Source of the DNA: a virus
Taxonomy: Duplodnaviria > Heunggongvirae > Uroviricota > Caudoviricetes
Virus record (IMG/VR): IMGVR_UViG_2541047922_000008
Reading direction: 5' to 3' (one strand)
Length of the DNA: 18,265 bases
The notes below the pieces were generated by a model. The model was given only the letters and a program-made list of their open reading frames with translations, was not told where the DNA came from and searched no databases. The position numbers were made by a program, and so were the translations under genes. Position 1 is the stretch's first letter, and every line of letters starts with the position of its first letter. Below are positions 667 to 14,863 of the stretch, in pieces.

Positions 667-691
667 AAAAACAAGGCCGCGAAAGCGGCCT
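667..691 (-). terminator. intrinsic terminator ending the giant-protein operon
   Basis: AGGCCGC-GAAA-GCGGCCT hairpin (674-691) with a GNRA loop, followed on the minus strand by TGTTTTT (667-673). Sits immediately 3' of the 104-aa gene stop at 700-702. Confidence 0.6.
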
Positions 692-699
692 GTGACATG

Positions 700-1014
700 T
701 CACGATAGTTCCGTTTTGTTGAATTCAATTATATCAAGGTCAGAACTTTCGTAATCCTTACCGAATAAAGCAAAACATATCGCGTCAAGTTCTCTCTTAT
801 GTTTGGACGCCCGATCATAATTACCACCCCAACAGCAAATGAATCCACCAAGTACTGCTGATTCAAAAAGTAATGATGCTGCATCAATATGTCTGAACCA
901 GGAGTCTATAAGTAAAGCAGAGAGTGATATTAATGTTCCCCACCCGCCAATCCTTCTCCATTTCTCAGCTTCATATTTAAGAGAAGCAATATATTCAATT
1001 TTATCTCTCGTCAT
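700..1014 (-). CDS. small membrane protein (104 aa, two predicted hydrophobic helices), last gene of the cargo operon
   Basis: ORF with ATG overlapping the upstream stop (TGATG at 1012-1016). Hydrophobic stretches WGTLISLSALLIDSWF and ASLLFESAVLGGFICCWGG. About 35% GC, versus about 50% for the neighbouring genes. Confidence 0.6.
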   Translation of the reverse strand: MTRDKIEYIASLKYEAEKWRRIGGWGTLISLSALLIDSWFRHIDAASLLFESAVLGGFICCWGGNYDRASKHKRELDAICFALFGKDYESSDLDIIEFNKTELS

Positions 1015-3770
1015 CAGTTCCCCACCGCCTTTCCAAAATCCGGTGCTCTACGTGGCGCAATAGCACCCGGTTCCCACCAACTCGTTATGTCGAACTCCCG
1101 TTGCGAGCGGTCCCTTACTCGATCATTGTAACCAGGGTTTGCCATCTCCTGAAGTTGTTGCAATATCAGGTGATTGGTTATCGCTTTCGCATACCACAGG
1201 TTTGCGAATGGGGTGATCATGCGGGCTGTTTTCAGTGCATCGGCACCGAATGATGTTTCTTCACCCTGTAGAGCCTTCTGTGGGTTAGTAATCAGTAATT
1301 TTGTTAACTGCTCTGCAAAGCTCAACACAGGGCCCCCCATAGTGGCACCGATGCTGGAGCCATATTGCGTATGGTCCTGGAAAATAAAATCACCGTAGAT
1401 ACCGAACGAACCACCTTTCAGTAAAGCCTGAACCCATGTGGTTGGTTTTGTCATATCCAGCGGATCATTACCATTTAACAAACTGTTCATCTGGATCGCA
1501 AACATACCAGCAAGAGTTGTTCCCCCGATATATGAGGCCAGAAATTTAATGGCCGGAACGGTGTCCAAATCCCGTGTTCTGTTAACAAGTTGCCGAAATC
1601 CAGCAAATGGGGTTGTTTTGAAGAGCATGAAGCTCTTCATTAACTCGCCAGCATCATCACGGGCATATGTATCAATACCCGTAGCGGTGGTCACAGCATT
1701 GGTCATCTCACCGTGCGTAATTCCCAGCAATTTCTGGGCTGCTTCAGCGCGTGCATTACGAATCATGCGCGTGATGGTCTGCTCAGCCTCAGCGTCGAAT
1801 GCTTCTTTCATCCGTTTCAGGCGTTCTGGAGGGAGATCTCCAAGGGCTGCCAGTGCCTTTTCACTCCCGGCACGAATCCGGGTAATACGGTCTGCCATAA
1901 TGTCGGCTATTACGTTATCGGGCACAGCGTAAATCGCGTCTGGCGTCATCCCCATATGCCCGGCAGTAGTCATCGGCCTGAGTTCTGCCGCTGCCATGAT
2001 GGCCCAGTCCTCATTGCTCCATCCCTTGTTAGCCAGAATGGTTTTATCGGTTCCTTTCATATCGTCCAGCGTCTTAAATTTTCTGGTCAGCTCGCCAATG
2101 TTTTTGTACATCAGGAGACCAAACGACGCTTTGTTTGCGCGGTCCATAGCGATCAGCCCGGACCACTTCAGTGTCTTCTCTGCGAACCAGCCAGTTATGC
2201 CGCGAGACAAGTCAAACCCGCCCATTTTCGAAACCACAGCAGCATGTGAATCCACCAGCAGACCGAGTTCAGCATTCGCCTTTTTGGCATCTCCACTAAA
2301 CAGGTTTTTGATAGTGTTAACGGAAAGCCGCATTCCACCACGGGTAAAGCCCAGCGCCTGCGCATTTGCCCGCATAATTGCCTGGTCGCTGGTTGCTGTC
2401 AGTACGCTGGTGCCAAGCATGGCGCTGGTCATCAGGTTACGCAGACCACCAACTGCTGAAGAGAACACACTCGATGAAGCGACACCATTTAGGCCAGCCA
2501 TTGAGTTGAACATACGGGCAACTAATTTGGCCTCATCCTCCATTTCTTTTTTGCGTTTCCCGCCTGTTACTGCGCGCTTATAGATGCGATCCAGTACCAG
2601 GGAAAAGTTTCTTTCGGCGTCCGGACCAAAGGCTTTAACGACGCCCAAATCCCTGGATGATGATTGCAGGTGCGACATCATCACCCCCACCAGCGGCTGC
2701 TGAGTGTATCGCTCCATATAGGCGAAGTGTGACTGCGCATCCTTGAACGCCATCACCCTGTGCTGAGAACCACGGCTCTTTATTCCTCCGGCTCCCATAA
2801 ATGTACCAGGCTCAATTTTGTTTGCCCCATCAGTGGCCTTCGTTTCAAAGATCGCTTCCAGTGCCTGACGGTACTCGACGTCATTCATAATGCTGCCGTC
2901 AGGATTAACGTAATTGCTGCGATCCTGCGTGTTGTAAGCGTCATCAACCCATTTCTGGCGGGCAAACTCAATCGGTGGCTGGCGACCTGAAAGACGTGCT
3001 GTAGCTTGCTCTGCCACTGGTAACGATGCCAGCCATTCTTCGCGCCCGGCATTGCGAATAAGGTCAGCATCATCCACATATGGCGTATGCCAGTCTTCTC
3101 GCAGGCCTATGTCAAAGCCATTGTCGTTCATCTCATGACGAACACGGCCTGTTACATCCTTCCAAATCTGTGCAATTTTCTTCGCCAGGGGATTCCCGGT
3201 ATCTTCGCCATATATTTCTTTCAGGATCTGGAGTTGTGCAGACTTTGCCGCCTGCCTGTCGAATACACTCCGAAACCGCTGCTCTCCAAGCGCCCTGCTC
3301 TGCTCGAAGAATTTGCGGACGTCATCACCTGCTTTTAGAAGTTCAGCACTGAGCTGACGGGACCAGTCCTGATATGCCCCAATTGCAAGCTCTTCAGCAG
3401 AAGTAACGGAGATATCAGCTTTGTCTCTCGATCGTCGGCCAGCAAAAATAAACTGCTGCAAATTAACAGGTGTCTGCTGATCAGGCGGGATGTTAGCATC
3501 GAGAGTGTCAGTAATTTTACTGATGGCGATCGCATTCTGGGCAACACGCTGTCTTTTCTTGTACACATCATGAACCACACGCTGGCGAACCAGTTCTGCA
3601 GCATCCATGTATGTTTGAGCATCAGGAATACCACTTTTGCCTTCCATTGCATTCTTTCTGTGCACTTGCCGCACAGCTTCTTTGATACGATCTTCGATAT
3701 TTTTCAGCTCATCAGCCTTTGGCTGGCGACCAAGTGTCTGCGCAATAGCTTCAACACATGCCTGTTTCAT
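1014..3770 (-). CDS. giant protein C (about 918 aa), unknown function, Gly/Ser/Ala-rich hydrophobic central region, no P-loop
   Basis: Long ORF. The ORF track starts at a GTG at 3791; I prefer the ATG at 3770, which overlaps the stop of protein B as TAATG (3768-3772), the same junction as between A and B. No Walker A motif seen. Confidence 0.85.
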   Translation of the reverse strand: MKQACVEAIAQTLGRQPKADELKNIEDRIKEAVRQVHRKNAMEGKSGIPDAQTYMDAAELVRQRVVHDVYKKRQRVAQNAIAISKITDTLDANIPPDQQTPVNLQQFIFAGRRSRDKADISVTSAEELAIGAYQDWSRQLSAELLKAGDDVRKFFEQSRALGEQRFRSVFDRQAAKSAQLQILKEIYGEDTGNPLAKKIAQIWKDVTGRVRHEMNDNGFDIGLREDWHTPYVDDADLIRNAGREEWLASLPVAEQATARLSGRQPPIEFARQKWVDDAYNTQDRSNYVNPDGSIMNDVEYRQALEAIFETKATDGANKIEPGTFMGAGGIKSRGSQHRVMAFKDAQSHFAYMERYTQQPLVGVMMSHLQSSSRDLGVVKAFGPDAERNFSLVLDRIYKRAVTGGKRKKEMEDEAKLVARMFNSMAGLNGVASSSVFSSAVGGLRNLMTSAMLGTSVLTATSDQAIMRANAQALGFTRGGMRLSVNTIKNLFSGDAKKANAELGLLVDSHAAVVSKMGGFDLSRGITGWFAEKTLKWSGLIAMDRANKASFGLLMYKNIGELTRKFKTLDDMKGTDKTILANKGWSNEDWAIMAAAELRPMTTAGHMGMTPDAIYAVPDNVIADIMADRITRIRAGSEKALAALGDLPPERLKRMKEAFDAEAEQTITRMIRNARAEAAQKLLGITHGEMTNAVTTATGIDTYARDDAGELMKSFMLFKTTPFAGFRQLVNRTRDLDTVPAIKFLASYIGGTTLAGMFAIQMNSLLNGNDPLDMTKPTTWVQALLKGGSFGIYGDFIFQDHTQYGSSIGATMGGPVLSFAEQLTKLLITNPQKALQGEETSFGADALKTARMITPFANLWYAKAITNHLILQQLQEMANPGYNDRVRDRSQREFDITSWWEPGAIAPRRAPDFGKAVGN

Positions 3771-5830
3771 TATGGGTTCCTCAAGAAGCACGCTGCCGCT
3801 ACAGAATAAACCTTCGATTCGTTCTGGACTGTCTTAATCTGTTCATCCAACTCAGCCAGGAGATCAGAAAGTTTTGTCGGGTTTCCGGTTTCCGGGTGAG
3901 CTATAGTCAGCTCAGGATTGGCAACAGCCATGTCCCTAGCAGCCATAAGGTCATAGCTGTTGGATGAGAGAACCTGCCCTGTATCTGGATCAACGCTGAC
4001 GTCCCCTCTGTGTTCACCAGCCGATGAGAAAGCACTTTCAGCACGAGGGACAGGCGATTCACTAATTGGCTCTGATGATGTTTCATATCTGACACCATTT
4101 TCTTCAAAAACCTTTTGTATTTCATGGTATTGCTCTTGGTAAGTATCAGATATATCTGATCGCAATGGACCATCAAGCCCTCGCGCCATCCCCCCAACAT
4201 TTACAGGCTGACCATCATTAAGTTGCCTGTATGCTTCATCCATGGCGTCAACATGGCTGTTGATGCTCTCATTGCTGGTGTGAAGCACTGGTGACGATTC
4301 AATATCGTAATGAAGCCCCTCATTCAAAATGTGGGCTGCATCAATATCGCTTGGTTTTATTCTTTCCCTCGCCCGGATACCAAAAACTTTTTCTACTGCG
4401 GCTTCCAGTTTCATATTGCGAAGACGCATACTTACGAGTAACCGTAACTGCTCAGGTGTAACGGTTCCAACCTGAATACCACTGTATCTGAATATATAGG
4501 CTTTAAAACCTGAAATAATTTTTTCCCATGATGAAACGCTTGTCTTTAGAGATGGATTTACTGCATGTGCGGCAACTTCTTCAGCGTACAACCACTCAGG
4601 ATATGTTTCAGGGTACTCACCCCTTTTCTTATATTCATAATATTGTGACATCCCATATGCAAATTCAGGATAGTCAGAATGCTTGTTTGCAGATTTAAGT
4701 ACAGCATTAGCTAGCTTTCTGGCCTTCCAGTCAGGGTAATGGCGCTGCTCAAGATGAAGCGCCTCGTGATGAAGGGTTTCTAACAGTTCTTCATGGTCTT
4801 TTAATCCATTAATATTTATTCTTATTATTGGTTCTTTTCCAGAAGCTACTGTCACATGACCTTTATTCAGAAGTATTTCTCCATCACTATTTTTTATTGC
4901 TGGTTCATTAATAAGTTCTATTACTCCTGAATCAGATAAATCACGAACCATTGACTCAATGTTACCATCAGGAGATTGCTGATAATGTTCACCAAAAGTT
5001 GATTTTATTTCTTCTGCAGAAATGTTCGACTCTGTACCATCATGGTTATTATGGGTAGTCAGGTGATGAACGCCACCAAAGACCCCGCCTAAAACGGCAT
5101 CGACTAACATCGCCTGACCGTCAAATACCCGGTACTGTTTTGCCATCTCCGTGTAGCCTTTTTCCTCCAGTGTTGCGCCGACAGAGTAACGGTTCAGTCC
5201 ACCGAATCCGGTGTTGATTGCCACACCTGAGGCAATGCGCGTTGCCAGTGTGGTGCCGACGGCAGCGGGTAAGGCCATACCCACAGCATTGAAAAGGCTT
5301 TGCTGCGTTGCCAGGTTACGCGCCGTAGCCTCGTCTACTCCCTTCCCTTTAAAATCCTGATAGGACTGCTCATACGTAGAACTGAAAGCTGTAGCAGCGC
5401 CGATGAGGGGACCGCCAAACATAGTTGTTCCGATTGCAGGAACAAATTTACCAAGCTCATTTAATACCTCAGCCGCCATTCCCTGACTGCCTGCATCAGG
5501 CTTCACATAGCTGCGGGCATCCTGTAACTGTTTTCCGATCGTGTCGTATGTATCATTCAGTGTTTTGTCAGCATCAGGGAACATCTCCCGAAAAATATTA
5601 ACAGTCGGTGCCACGTCTGCGGTAAATGCCGGATCGCTAATCAGGCGCTTGCTGAATCCGACGGCAGACTGCGCGAGACCGAGAGTCCCCTCCGCCACGC
5701 CGCTCAAAAGTGCAGTACCTGAACCCTGGAAGGGAGTCGGATCGTAGTCTTCTGGCCTTGCTGGGTTGGCAACTGTTTTGTCGTCAATCCATGCCTGACC
5801 TTCTGGAGCCAAAGAAAAAACATCAGACAT
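3770..5830 (-). CDS. giant protein B (686 aa), N-terminal glycine-rich hydrophobic segments plus a single HExxH zincin-type motif
   Basis: Long ORF whose ATG overlaps the stop of protein A (TAATG at 5828-5832). HHEALHLEQ at residues 354-362 (nt 4745-4771). GxxxG-rich hydrophobic stretches across residues about 120-260. No P-loop. Confidence 0.85.
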   Translation of the reverse strand: MSDVFSLAPEGQAWIDDKTVANPARPEDYDPTPFQGSGTALLSGVAEGTLGLAQSAVGFSKRLISDPAFTADVAPTVNIFREMFPDADKTLNDTYDTIGKQLQDARSYVKPDAGSQGMAAEVLNELGKFVPAIGTTMFGGPLIGAATAFSSTYEQSYQDFKGKGVDEATARNLATQQSLFNAVGMALPAAVGTTLATRIASGVAINTGFGGLNRYSVGATLEEKGYTEMAKQYRVFDGQAMLVDAVLGGVFGGVHHLTTHNNHDGTESNISAEEIKSTFGEHYQQSPDGNIESMVRDLSDSGVIELINEPAIKNSDGEILLNKGHVTVASGKEPIIRININGLKDHEELLETLHHEALHLEQRHYPDWKARKLANAVLKSANKHSDYPEFAYGMSQYYEYKKRGEYPETYPEWLYAEEVAAHAVNPSLKTSVSSWEKIISGFKAYIFRYSGIQVGTVTPEQLRLLVSMRLRNMKLEAAVEKVFGIRARERIKPSDIDAAHILNEGLHYDIESSPVLHTSNESINSHVDAMDEAYRQLNDGQPVNVGGMARGLDGPLRSDISDTYQEQYHEIQKVFEENGVRYETSSEPISESPVPRAESAFSSAGEHRGDVSVDPDTGQVLSSNSYDLMAARDMAVANPELTIAHPETGNPTKLSDLLAELDEQIKTVQNESKVYSVAAACFLRNP

Positions 5831-8766: not shown

Positions 8767-8789
8767 AAAAAAAGCCGGATTGCTCCGGC
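8767..8789 (-). terminator. intrinsic terminator separating the replication module from the cargo operon
   Basis: GCCGGA-GCAA-TCCGGC hairpin (8774-8789) followed on the minus strand by seven T (8767-8773). Not followed by a T-run on the plus strand. Confidence 0.6.
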
Positions 8790-9030
8790 TCTGTGCTTAC
8801 TTCTGGTAGTTACGCCATACTGATTTCCCGATCCCATCTATCCCCATTTCTTTTTCAGTGCGTTTAAGCGACCGTTTCAGGTCTTCTAAATTATCCGGTT
8901 GCTTTGGTGGCCTCTGTGCCTTGCTGGAACATTCCAGTCGTCGCATTGATATGCAATACCGTTCCTTGTCAGTACCCCAACTGCATTACTTCACCCCATC
9001 GCGCCGCCGCTCTTCGGTACAGGGTTTTAG

Positions 9031-13025: not shown

Positions 13026-13283
13026 TTATTTCCCGGTATGGGGTTCTTCTTTATATTTATGGGCTAACAAATCTGGTAATTGCCTGTATTTATCCTCGGC
13101 AATATATTCAGAATAATCGACAGCACTGTTCAGTATATCTAACGCCGTTTCATGCTCCAGATTCGAAACTATAAGGAACGTTGCTACTTTTAGCATATTC
13201 GCGATATGCAAAAGAGCATCAATTTCATTTTTTGGCGCTTCACTGAATTTTTGCTCCAGAAGAATAAATCGTTCATCACGCAT
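13026..13283 (-). CDS. hypothetical protein (85 aa), AT-rich
   Basis: ORF 2 nt upstream of the 100-aa gene. Markedly AT-rich relative to neighbours. Confidence 0.5.
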   Translation of the reverse strand: MRDERFILLEQKFSEAPKNEIDALLHIANMLKVATFLIVSNLEHETALDILNSAVDYSEYIAEDKYRQLPDLLAHKYKEEPHTGK

Positions 13284-13479
13284 AGTATTCCCCCTGACGG
13301 ATGCGGGCAGTAAATACCATCACGCAGCCAGTCGGGGATTGCTGACGGGCTTCCTGTTCGCTGGCGGCCTCGATGTGTATTACGCGTGGTTGTGCGGTGC
13401 TCAGGGCGATAAAACGCCAGATGTATTTATTCAGGTTGTGCGAGTCCCGCCCTTGCGGGTGTGTGGTATGATTTAACAT
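13276..13479 (-). CDS. hypothetical small protein (67 aa), first gene of the leftward replication operon
   Basis: ATG at 13479 preceded by GAGGTAG. It is the 3' part of the 396-aa track ORF, whose upstream part runs through the operator palindromes and antisense to two better-supported plus-strand genes. Confidence 0.35.
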   Translation of the reverse strand: MLNHTTHPQGRDSHNLNKYIWRFIALSTAQPRVIHIEAASEQEARQQSPTGCVMVFTARIRQGEYYA

Positions 13480-13576
13480 AGCTACCTCGATACGCTTTCT
13501 ATCGTTGGTGGTTAGACGCCCTGCATGTGTTGCGAGCACTGCGGGGCGTTGCTTAATTTGAGCAATGCAACCCAAA

Positions 13577-13616
13577 CTGTGCGCACAGATTAAAATCATG
13601 TGTGCGCACATGTCAA
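13577..13616 (-). promoter_or_regulatory. leftward promoter with palindromic operators
   Basis: Perfect -35 TTGACA on the minus strand (13611-13616). It overlaps the perfect 16-bp palindrome CATGTGTGCGCACATG (13597-13612). A perfect 12-bp palindrome CTGTGCGCACAG (13577-13588) lies at the expected transcription start. A half-site TTGTGTGCGCC sits near 13645-13657. The -10 hexamer is weak (TTAATC). Confidence 0.5.
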
Positions 13617-13684
13617 TACTTAACTTCTCACTTTTTTTGCTGTATTGTGTGCGCCCATCAAATCCATTTAAGTGAGGTGTACCA

Positions 13685-13882
13685 ATGTCTAGCGGAAACA
13701 CAAACAACAAATCAGCAAAGAAAAATATTCGATTCCCGCACGAGCTTATAGATGGGATTGATGCCAGTGTTGAACAAGAAAAATTAACTAATCCTAGTGC
13801 TAATTTTTCCGCATGGGTCTTAGATGCCTGTGGACGCAAATTAAAATATGAACAGCGCCGGAAGGCCAAAGAGCAGGAGTAA
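13685..13882 (+). CDS. small ribbon-helix-helix-like DNA-binding protein (65 aa), candidate repressor
   Basis: GAGGTG Shine-Dalgarno 6 nt upstream. NIRFPHELIDGIDASVEQE fits the Arc/MetJ beta-strand plus helix pattern (R-F-P-x-E-L). Transcribed divergently from the operator-bearing promoter. Confidence 0.55.
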   Translation: MSSGNTNNKSAKKNIRFPHELIDGIDASVEQEKLTNPSANFSAWVLDACGRKLKYEQRRKAKEQE

Positions 13883-13939
13883 CCATCACCAGCGCCGTGG
13901 TGCGGTGAACTGTGGCGCACAGGGTTACAGGTATCTACG

Positions 13940-14137
13940 ATGACTGACAAATCATTAAAGAAATTATCCTCATCCAGGAAAAAACAACGCAAAAATGCGG
14001 TAAGCGAACAAGAACAGGAAAGATTTGCGCCATGTGCGTTTGTCCTTGAGAAGTTCTTAAAAGAGTACAGGCGCACAAAAATGGAATCGCATACCTGGAA
14101 AACATCGCAGTATGGCGATGCTAAAGAGCAGGAATAG
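13940..14137 (+). CDS. small basic protein (65 aa), hypothetical
   Basis: ORF with a weak Shine-Dalgarno. Its last codons and the about 15 nt after the stop repeat the 3' end of the upstream small gene. Confidence 0.4.
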   Translation: MTDKSLKKLSSSRKKQRKNAVSEQEQERFAPCAFVLEKFLKEYRRTKMESHTWKTSQYGDAKEQE

Positions 14138-14227
14138 CCCACCAGCAAGCCAGCACACTGATCACATTGCCCACCAGCCGCAAATCTGGCATTGTTGGCG
14201 ATGCGTTTGATTTCCTTTGTTCCCACT

Positions 14228-14255
14228 GGCGACCTATCCCGGTCGCCTTTGTTTT
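14228..14255 (+). terminator. intrinsic terminator for the plus-strand small-gene transcript
   Basis: GGCGACC-TATCCC-GGTCGCC hairpin (14228-14247) followed by TTTGTTTT. No T-run on the minus strand. Confidence 0.5.
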
Positions 14256-14305
14256 GCCTGTTATCCAGCAACGGGGCGCTTTTTCTTTCTGTAACGTTCG
14301 GATCG

Positions 14306-14863
14306 TTACACATTGCTTTCACCCTCCAGAAAATCAGGCTGATATTTACGCCATAGCGCCCGCTCTTCTCGTTCCAGTGCATCTTTTGCCTCTTTGCATT
14401 GCTGTAACCTGTAACCGCGTTTGCTGGCTTCCTGTTGATATGCAGCCTGACGTTTACTGAAATCATTCAGCATGGCAAACGGAACACCATAACCCCCCGT
14501 TTTGCGGATTGAAGGAATCACCTCGCGGAATACCCAGTTACTGAAACGGTGCGCAAATGTGCCTGGTGTGGAAGCTTTACGGCTGCGGGCGATCAGTTTG
14601 TAGAAACCTGATTCAGAGACAACATTCCAGCTTCTGGCACCACCACGCTTACCGGAATGACCCTCGGTTAAAGCTAGGGTCATTACCTCATCGTTATCCA
14701 GAACTGAAACGGCATCAGTAACATTGCTGATTTCCAGCGCGGCACACACATCAGCGCCAACAAACCACGGCTCGCCGTTGATACTCACTATGCGCACCTG
14801 AATGTCATCGAATTTAATGACAGAGATTTCAGTGCGACCAGCATAAAAGACAGGTTTACGCAT
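14306..14863 (-). CDS. Bro-N domain protein (phage antirepressor family)
   Basis: VIKFDDIQVRIVSINGEPWFVGADVCAALEI matches the Bro-N signature. 8-nt overlap with the upstream gene. Confidence 0.8.
   Translation of the reverse strand: MRKPVFYAGRTEISVIKFDDIQVRIVSINGEPWFVGADVCAALEISNVTDAVSVLDNDEVMTLALTEGHSGKRGGARSWNVVSESGFYKLIARSRKASTPGTFAHRFSNWVFREVIPSIRKTGGYGVPFAMLNDFSKRQAAYQQEASKRGYRLQQCKEAKDALEREERALWRKYQPDFLEGESNV

Follow-up and report, generated by a model that had tools for sequence, protein, structure and literature searches.

A predicted zincin-like domain of the polyvalent-protein type at the linker of an ε15 gp16-like protein in a satellite-like element of Escherichia coli

Few virion components are as poorly understood as the ejection proteins of short-tailed phages, on which, to our knowledge, the only enzymatic passengers recognised so far are cell-wall hydrolases. 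This report concerns a putative member of this class, here designated Protein B (686 amino acids, aa), which is encoded in IMG/VR record IMGVR_UViG_2541047922_000008 (Caudoviricetes); the whole 18,265-nucleotide stretch that was analyzed is referred to as the window. The closest described system is the gp15-gp16-gp17 block of Salmonella phage ε15 (Uetakevirus), which is listed among the podoviruses having an operon of the gp14/15/16 type (PMC8954989). Protein B resembles the product of the middle gene of this block, ε15 gp16 (634 aa), in its gene order, in the stop/start overlaps with the adjacent genes and in its Gly/Ala-rich stretches. However, where ε15 gp16 has a Pro/Ala-rich linker and a coiled-coil-like stretch, Protein B has a module with an HExxH motif, and while ε15 is a complete phage, the element encoding Protein B lacks capsid genes.

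Enzymatic domains are able to swap between ejection proteins, as exemplified by the lytic transglycosylase domain of T7 gp16, which in K1E and K1-5 sits instead on the gp15 homolog (PMC8954989). The locus described here is similar in that an ejection protein serves as the carrier of a putatively catalytic module that is transferred between proteins by recombination; the T7-type modules, however, hydrolyse peptidoglycan and have an evident function in penetrating the envelope, whereas that of Protein B is protease-like. A second point of comparison is provided by the polyvalent proteins of phages, defined by Iyer et al. 2017 (PMC5512222), in which the commonest domain is a zincin-like metallopeptidase (MPTase). 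This domain was described as a three-stranded sheet with an N-terminal helix, a helix bearing HExxH and, separated from the latter by variable inserts, a further helix that carries a Glu (PMC5512222). In the same study, residues 2130-2448 of the N4 virion RNA polymerase (vRNAP) were assigned to the zincin MPTases and a link of the polyvalent MPTases to anthrax lethal factor was reported. The C-terminal domain of the N4 protein has been solved (PDB 9PNR), and its C1 subdomain (residues 2124-2375) carries the HExxH motif; no activity was reported (PMC13434306). There are thus precedents both for zincin-like domains in polyvalent proteins and for a mosaic distribution of enzymatic domains among ejection proteins. 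New in the present case are a subfamily of the domain outside Pfam, its insertion into a gp16 of the ε15 type and its residence in a capsid-less, satellite-like element. We put at roughly 55% the probability that Protein B is an ejection protein of the ε15 gp16 type with an extra, enzymatic-looking domain gained by cassette exchange, this figure applying to the combined account in which domain homology, catalysis and virion delivery are taken together.

Protein B was assigned to PHROG family 1145 with an E value of 5e-137. In a BLASTP comparison with ε15 gp16 (NP_848224), identity was 84% over aa 1-265 and 74% over aa 480-686, with no match between these segments. The minus strand of the window carries three large open reading frames (ORFs) that overlap end to end, the last of them reading mechanically as 1014..3791. 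Within this set the start codon of the Protein B gene overlaps by 1 nt the stop of the gp15-like gene, its own stop overlaps the start of the gp17-like gene, and it is thus placed, as in ε15, between a gp15-like (transglycosylase-type) and a gp17-like gene in one operon. On this comparison, Protein B is identified as a homolog of the ε15 gp16 internal-virion (DNA-ejection) protein. Ordinary gp16 genes of complete ε15-like prophages are found directly downstream of a gene of the T7_gp14 family. Searches of Pfam with full-length Protein B at E≤0.1 gave no usable match, and the gp15-like and gp17-like neighbours were also without a Pfam domain.

The affiliation of the central module first emerged from a weak tblastn match (E 2e-3) between its last third and giant proteins annotated as "DarB-like antirestriction" or "PLxRFG" in podophages of ~60 kb. 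The similarity was found to span the whole module, including an HExxH at the equivalent position in the giant proteins. A hidden Markov model (HMM) built from five polyvalent proteins alone matched Protein B (aa 289-475) with 35 bits and an E value of 6e-11, and Protein B was the sole scorer among the 122 ORFs of the window. When Protein B and P0004, a gp16 relative carrying the same module, were compared by hhalign with the family from which both had been removed, a probability of 98.6% was obtained (E 1e-15, 171 columns). The domain family was then enlarged by a scan of viral contigs to 42 unique sequences, which are 20-27% identical to Protein B. Ten residues are invariant in these sequences, i.e. 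H355, E356, H359, E417, E418, A421, Q453, G455, T458 and P459, and the spacing between HExxH and the EE pair is 58-71 aa across the family, with 62 aa in Protein B.

The string HHEALHLEQ occupies aa 354-362 of Protein B (nt 4745-4771), exactly as had been claimed in an earlier note on this DNA. By composition, HExxH would be expected 0.046 times in Protein B, and it occurs once among the window ORFs of at least 200 aa. Because it is invariant in 42 homologous domains that are only 20-27% identical to Protein B, the motif is more than a chance occurrence. It is also not "lone", as it had been called, given the invariant EE pair (E417/E418) downstream. The reading of the motif as zincin-type gains support at the family level, from the 42 members and from the link to N4 described below, but the extended form HExxHxxQ does not hold, since Q362 is confined to Protein B and P0004 and the remaining family reads HE.FHSG. 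We conclude that the module very probably belongs, by domain homology, to an HExxH…E family of polyvalent phage proteins.

The carriers of this domain are genuine polyvalent proteins. Among those compared with Protein B, Ralstonia phage GP4 contributes a "DarB-like" protein of 3224 aa, and Klebsiella Lastavirus and Serratia Parlo contribute PLxRFG proteins; GP4 gp68 combines the domain with SLT, LPD3 and LPD38, and in P0123, a fragment of a carrier, the domain continues into PBECR1. They share with Protein B a homologous segment of ~185 aa in which HExxH, EE and G.Q.G..TP.QLR are invariant, and they are virion-packaged and thought to be injected with the DNA. Unlike Protein B, which has 686 aa and a single passenger domain, they are multi-enzyme proteins of 2000-5000 aa. 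The phages carrying the HExxH…EE…G.Q.G..TP.QLR domain are podophages of ~57-63 kb (Ralstonia GP4-like, Klebsiella Lastavirus, Serratia Parlo, Ochrobactrum POI1126, Pseudomonas Itty13). Outside this family little was retrieved with the module: a word-indexed protein database search returned nothing, Protein B itself included, an exhaustive phmmer search of 1.84e9 representatives yielded only an identical fragment of 74 aa, and tblastn against plasmids produced no match. Sequence searches of the PDB with Protein B and with the module profile also found no match; a weak hit to 9fn4 (E 0.031) was gone when the module profile was used and was therefore treated as chance.

The connection to zincins runs through N4. 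By hhalign, the family profile matched the single N4 sequence with a probability of 80-87% and a nine-sequence profile of N4-like vRNAPs with 92-93% (E 3-6e-7), whether or not Protein B was included. In these alignments HExxH falls on HELVH of N4, and E418 of Protein B on the conserved single Glu of "NEF" in the N4-like vRNAPs. The C1 subdomain of N4 vRNAP is the nearest solved relative by transitive profile homology and, like the module, part of an ejected virion protein, although it reads NEF where Protein B has EEV. Gluzincins such as anthrax lethal factor and MtfA have HExxH followed ~50-65 aa later by a helix of the E-x-x-A type. The module follows the same motif logic, with HExxH and a Glu on a later helix, but no match of the module to these proteins was obtained at the level of sequence or fold. 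AlphaFold2 (AF2) models of the module reached a mean predicted local distance difference test (pLDDT) of 41.7 with two sequences, and 48.3, with a predicted template modelling score (pTM) of 0.42, with five sequences. Fold searches with these models (pLDDT ≤48.3) gave noise only. The order of elements in the low-confidence model, i.e. a helix, three strands, the HExxH helix (model residues 68-82), two insert helices and the EE helix, agrees with the published description of zincins. The zincin fold of the module is inferred from homology and motif conservation, which support at the family level the view that HExxH belongs to a conserved domain of the zincin-like metallopeptidase type with an invariant Glu on a later predicted helix. 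Catalytic activity of the module may be regarded as an even call.

The boundaries of the module are sharply defined at the DNA level (Table 1). Homology with ε15 DNA spans from the ATG of gp15 (8361) to the stop of gp17 (1012), and the replaced cassette constitutes its sole, clean break. The GC content of the cassette is 0.385, compared to 0.502 in the remainder of the Protein B gene. The central segments of the best 120 gp16 relatives were surveyed and three types were found: (i) a Pro/Ala/Glu-rich linker of ~60 aa in 76 of the 120 (proteins of 521 aa), (ii) a segment of ~170-180 aa of the ε15 type, with a linker and a coiled-coil-like stretch, in 35, and (iii) an HExxH module of ~230 aa in three, namely the 90% cluster of Protein B itself (339 members), a truncated copy, and P0004. 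In distant relatives with 23-30% identity (MPK9, SPN1S, phiV10, SC1, YeP5), only 10-25 aa separate the N domain from the "(D/E)IDAA" start of the C domain. The module sits at the position of the inter-domain linker, which measures 10-70 aa in most relatives, and is an accessory cassette gained through recombination. Between Protein B and P0004 (59-64% identical in the module), the ratio of nonsynonymous to synonymous substitution rates (dN/dS) is ~0.09 for the module and 0.13 for the C domain, with ratios of the corresponding proportions (pN/pS) of 0.33 and 0.28, respectively; synonymous sites are saturated in both comparisons. The module is thus constrained coding sequence under purifying selection. 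P0004 lies on a contig with gp13 and gp14 upstream, an ordinary context of phage virion genes.

Table 1. Positions of the Protein B gene, its domains and motifs, and the adjacent virion-type genes in the window.
Feature	Position	Strand	Remarks
Protein B gene, 686 aa	3770..5830	minus	ε15 gp16 homolog (PHROG 1145); RefSeq WP_021549390.1
N domain, aa 1-255	5066..5830	minus	84% identical to ε15 gp16; contains three Gly/Ala-rich, moderately hydrophobic stretches
Replaced DNA cassette, Protein B aa ~257-489, ~700 bp	4362..5060	minus	without ε15 DNA homology
Zincin-like (MPTase-type) domain core, aa 289-475	4406..4966	minus	predicted; match of profile from polyvalent phage proteins only
HEALH (H355, E356, H359)	4754..4768	minus	invariant in 42 family members; predicted in helix
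E417-E418 in EEVAAHAV	4577..4582	minus	invariant in family; E418 = candidate third metal ligand
C-terminal family signature SGIQVGTVTPEQLR, aa 450-463	4442..4483	minus	Q453, G455, T458, P459 invariant; source of the first weak tblastn matches
C domain, aa 490-686	3773..4363	minus	74% identical to ε15 gp16; begins with family motif (K)PSDIDAAH
gp15-like gene, 843 aa	5830..8361	minus	PHROG 992; transglycosylase-like region aa ~244-364; its ATG is the exact start of ε15 DNA homology
gp17-like virion structural gene, 918 aa from ATG 3770	1014..3770	minus	RefSeq annotation; ε15 DNA homology ends at its stop
Small ORF, 104 aa, gp18 position	700..1014	minus	followed by terminator-like hairpin 674-691 (-), as in ε15

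The N domain contains the three hydrophobic stretches that the earlier note had quoted as glycine-zipper-like membrane segments, and these were located at aa 127-149, 180-211 and 241-254. The stretches themselves are real: they are retained in gp16-like proteins of 23-30% identity (Pseudomonas MPK9, SPN1S, phiV10, Liberibacter SC1, Yersinia YeP5), with G140, G144, A145, A190, G248 and G253 as small residues that are invariant across the distant relatives, alongside P188, F251 and the polar residues D166, T169, R214, Y226, Y233, D237 and D244. The zipper label, in contrast, fails. Between aa 120 and 260 there are two motifs of the type (G/A/S)xxxGxxx(G/A/S/T), compared to 2.4 expected from composition-matched shuffles (P 0.70), and three GxxxG motifs compared to 2.6 (P 0.51), and no Pfam match to a Gly-zipper was found. 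The highest 19-aa Kyte-Doolittle mean is 1.34, below the value of ~1.6 that is usual for classical transmembrane helices. What the Gly/Ala-rich stretches make up is the conserved core of the gp16 N domain, a domain of podovirus ejection proteins, and the pattern of conservation would suit a protein that passes from a soluble to a membrane state, for which the term "conformational gymnast" has been used in describing ejection proteins (PMC8954989). A PDB sequence search with the N-domain profile found no solved relative.

Some of the relatives show variations of their own in the N domain. The gp16-like proteins of SPN1S and phiV10 have an insertion of ~29 aa after the invariant Pro that starts the second hydrophobic stretch, whereas in the protein of Liberibacter SC1, for which the annotation "possible endolysin" has no visible support, ~22 aa are inserted inside the first stretch.

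A chromosomal segment of E. coli 82.0311 matches the window with 99.9% identity; there the element (~18-19 kb) adjoins tRNA-Gly. It encodes, in order, an integrase, a helix-turn-helix protein, AntA and BRO antirepressors, an Icd-like gene, DUF4222, a DUF927 primase-helicase, a single-stranded DNA-binding protein, ProQ/FinO, a frameshifted PerC and a 68-aa ORF, followed at its end by gp15-, gp16-, gp17- and gp18-like genes, the only virion genes present. No capsid, portal, terminase, tail/tailspike or lysis genes were found in the element at the tRNA-Gly site. Two chromosomal sites harbour this layout, each with a different integrase: tRNA-Gly/actS and, in other strains, yicC-dinD. Of 5426 complete E. 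coli genomes, 37 contain DNA of the module, each at 99% identity or higher. The backbone of ε15 is unrelated to that of the element, and the primase of the element resembles those of satellite-sized records. All three inspected copies of the element have a PerC-family gene that is annotated as frameshifted, and in strain MS 196-1 the BRO-N gene is interrupted by an internal stop, while every inspected copy has retained its three large virion-type genes intact. Taken together, this context points to a satellite-like mobile island that captured only an ejection-protein block, rather than to a random remnant. A search for exact att repeats at the ends of the element at the tRNA-Gly site found none of at least 12 nt, and a literature search found no satellites carrying only ejection-protein genes.

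Terminator-like, GC-rich hairpins with T-runs are present on the minus strand after the gp18-like ORF and at 8771-8792, just ahead of the 68-aa ORF that is followed by the gp15-like gene; they are predicted to delimit the captured block as a transcription unit of its own. No promoter of the σ70 consensus was seen ahead of the block. The gp15-like protein is placed by PHROG in a family annotated "head protein" with an endolysin/transglycosylase-like region, and this region (…RGIRNNNPGNLEY…) matches PHROGs annotated as endolysin or tail-injection transglycosylase, with no Pfam domain; within the ejection set, it is this protein that probably cuts peptidoglycan. The gp17-like protein falls in PHROG 684 ("virion structural protein"). 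The mechanical ORF of 925 aa, with a GTG at 3791 as its start, probably overestimates the length of this protein, since both RefSeq and synteny with ε15 indicate a start at ATG 3770, with a one-base overlap with the stop codon of the Protein B gene. Elsewhere in the window, the 396-aa mechanical ORF 13276-14466 (minus strand) is unlikely to be a genuine gene over its full length: the match to a PHROG (6196) is confined to the C-terminal ~90 aa, and RefSeq has small genes in its place (Icd-like; YlcI/YnfO on the other strand).

Under the account proposed here, Protein B would be packed into the capsid together with its gp15- and gp17-like partners and expelled at infection into the envelope of the recipient cell, where the conserved Gly/Ala-rich N domain would help to form or anchor a trans-envelope conduit for DNA. 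The passenger domain could bind Zn through H355, H359 and E418, with E356 acting as the general base, and might act early, cutting either Protein B and its ejection partners or a host protein; self or partner processing and cleavage of host proteins were put forward as alternatives for the polyvalent MPTases as well (PMC5512222). Delivery of Protein B by virions is rated as rather likely. Since the element has no capsid genes, such delivery would depend on an ε15-like helper phage. The earlier note had described the architecture as effector-like, and this is a fair description, because Protein B, as a homolog of ε15 gp16, is of a kind that is delivered to cells.

Several observations weigh against this account. 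No protease activity has been demonstrated for any member of the family, N4 vRNAP included, and the authors of the N4 structure mention HExxH only as a motif, one also present in HExxH enzymes that are not proteases (PMC13434306). When Protein B and P0004 were compared directly with the N4 family by hhalign, the probability was 3%, i.e. undetectable, and the zincin link is therefore transitive only. Of the 30 positions that reach 90% conservation or more in the family, 9 have a different residue in Protein B and P0004 (e.g. F358L, Y422H, E425N), and both proteins have an insertion of 18 aa ahead of the HExxH helix. In Pfam searches at E≤10 neither the module of Protein B nor the GP4 copy gave a match, and 26 family members searched individually gave only isolated peptidase matches (WLM 0.12, SprT-like 0.14, Peptidase_M1 0.22); PF18818 (MPTase-PolyVal) was never matched by any of these sequences, and NCBIfam had no match to the module. 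With regard to delivery, a literature search found no experimental virion association of ε15 gp16, and capsid, portal, terminase and tail genes are absent from the element at both insertion sites, which makes delivery by virions conditional on the helper.

Some of this evidence would also be compatible with a passenger that is not a protease, the alternative that survives best, although we consider it unlikely. The HExxH module might be structural or bind metal, its role might lie in packaging gp16 or in positioning or spacing it within the capsid core, or it might be another HExxH enzyme, e.g. an oxygenase of the αKG-HExxH type. Besides the lack of a known activity in the family and the deviation of Protein B from near-invariant positions, this explanation is favoured by the finding that the region of N4 vRNAP that includes the MPTase is needed for encapsidation and that vRNAP is packaged unprocessed (PMC5512222), as well as by the inert-looking Pro/Ala/Glu linker or coiled-coil-like stretch that other gp16 variants hold at the same place. 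However, the absolute conservation of HExxH and the downstream Glu at such low overall identity is the pattern of a catalytic or metal site and not of a spacer, the style and spacing of the motif fit gluzincins, and the module is under purifying selection.

The absence of capsid, tail and packaging genes next to an intact gp15-gp18 block also raises the question of whether virions are involved at all. Protein B and its two partners could instead be expressed from the resident element as the defence or interference cargo of a satellite, acting against ε15-like phages by poisoning the assembly of the ejectosome or core or by superinfection exclusion. The occurrence of the same layout at two sites with different integrases, a backbone that is not ε15-like, the satellite-type primase and the terminator-like hairpins that bound the block would all suit such a role. 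We nevertheless regard it as quite improbable: PADLOC gave no match to any of these proteins, the module is also found in P0004 amid ordinary virion genes, and over their conserved parts the three proteins share 70-84% identity with their counterparts in genuine phages.

A decaying prophage remnant, in which Protein B, with its HExxH, would have no current function, is suggested by the missing capsid genes, the frameshifted PerC and the interrupted BRO gene, but is hard to reconcile with three large ORFs that are intact in every inspected copy, with the prevalence and near-identity of the module DNA in E. coli genomes and the size of the Protein B cluster, with the presence of the same element at two sites with different integrases, and with a dN/dS far under 1; it is given little credence. 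Least credible is the literal model of the earlier note, a pore-forming glycine-zipper membrane toxin fused to a DUF4157-type zincin, which fits the presence of the Gly/Ala-rich hydrophobic stretches and the HExxHxxQ string but is contradicted by the chance-level zipper motifs, the sub-transmembrane hydrophobicity, the want of any Pfam match to DUF4157 (even at E≤10 for the module) and the non-conserved Q362, while the stretches, as part of the ejection-domain core, are also found in relatives without the protease module, for which reason a stand-alone membrane toxin was rejected as well.

The preferred reading thus remains that of a gp16-type ejection protein bearing a protease-like passenger. 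Beyond it, and only tentatively, the element may represent a kind of satellite that has not been described, one that would use the capsid and tail of an ε15-like helper together with an ejectosome of its own (gp15-, gp16- and gp17-like). This doubtful possibility includes the idea that the polyvalent-type metallopeptidase of Protein B acts in the next host, for example on a defence protein, or sabotages helper particles.

A protease-like domain placed exactly at the inter-domain linker of gp16 suggests that ejection proteins can deliver early-acting effectors. If this is true, it blurs the boundary between the "ejectosome" and the giant polyvalent anti-defence proteins. The domain family itself can be defined from 42 unique sequences outside Pfam and is related to the unexplained HExxH subdomain of N4 vRNAP; Protein B offers a small, tractable carrier from E. 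coli in which the function of the domain may be probed, and its carrier element provides a testable case of a satellite that would bring only ejection proteins.

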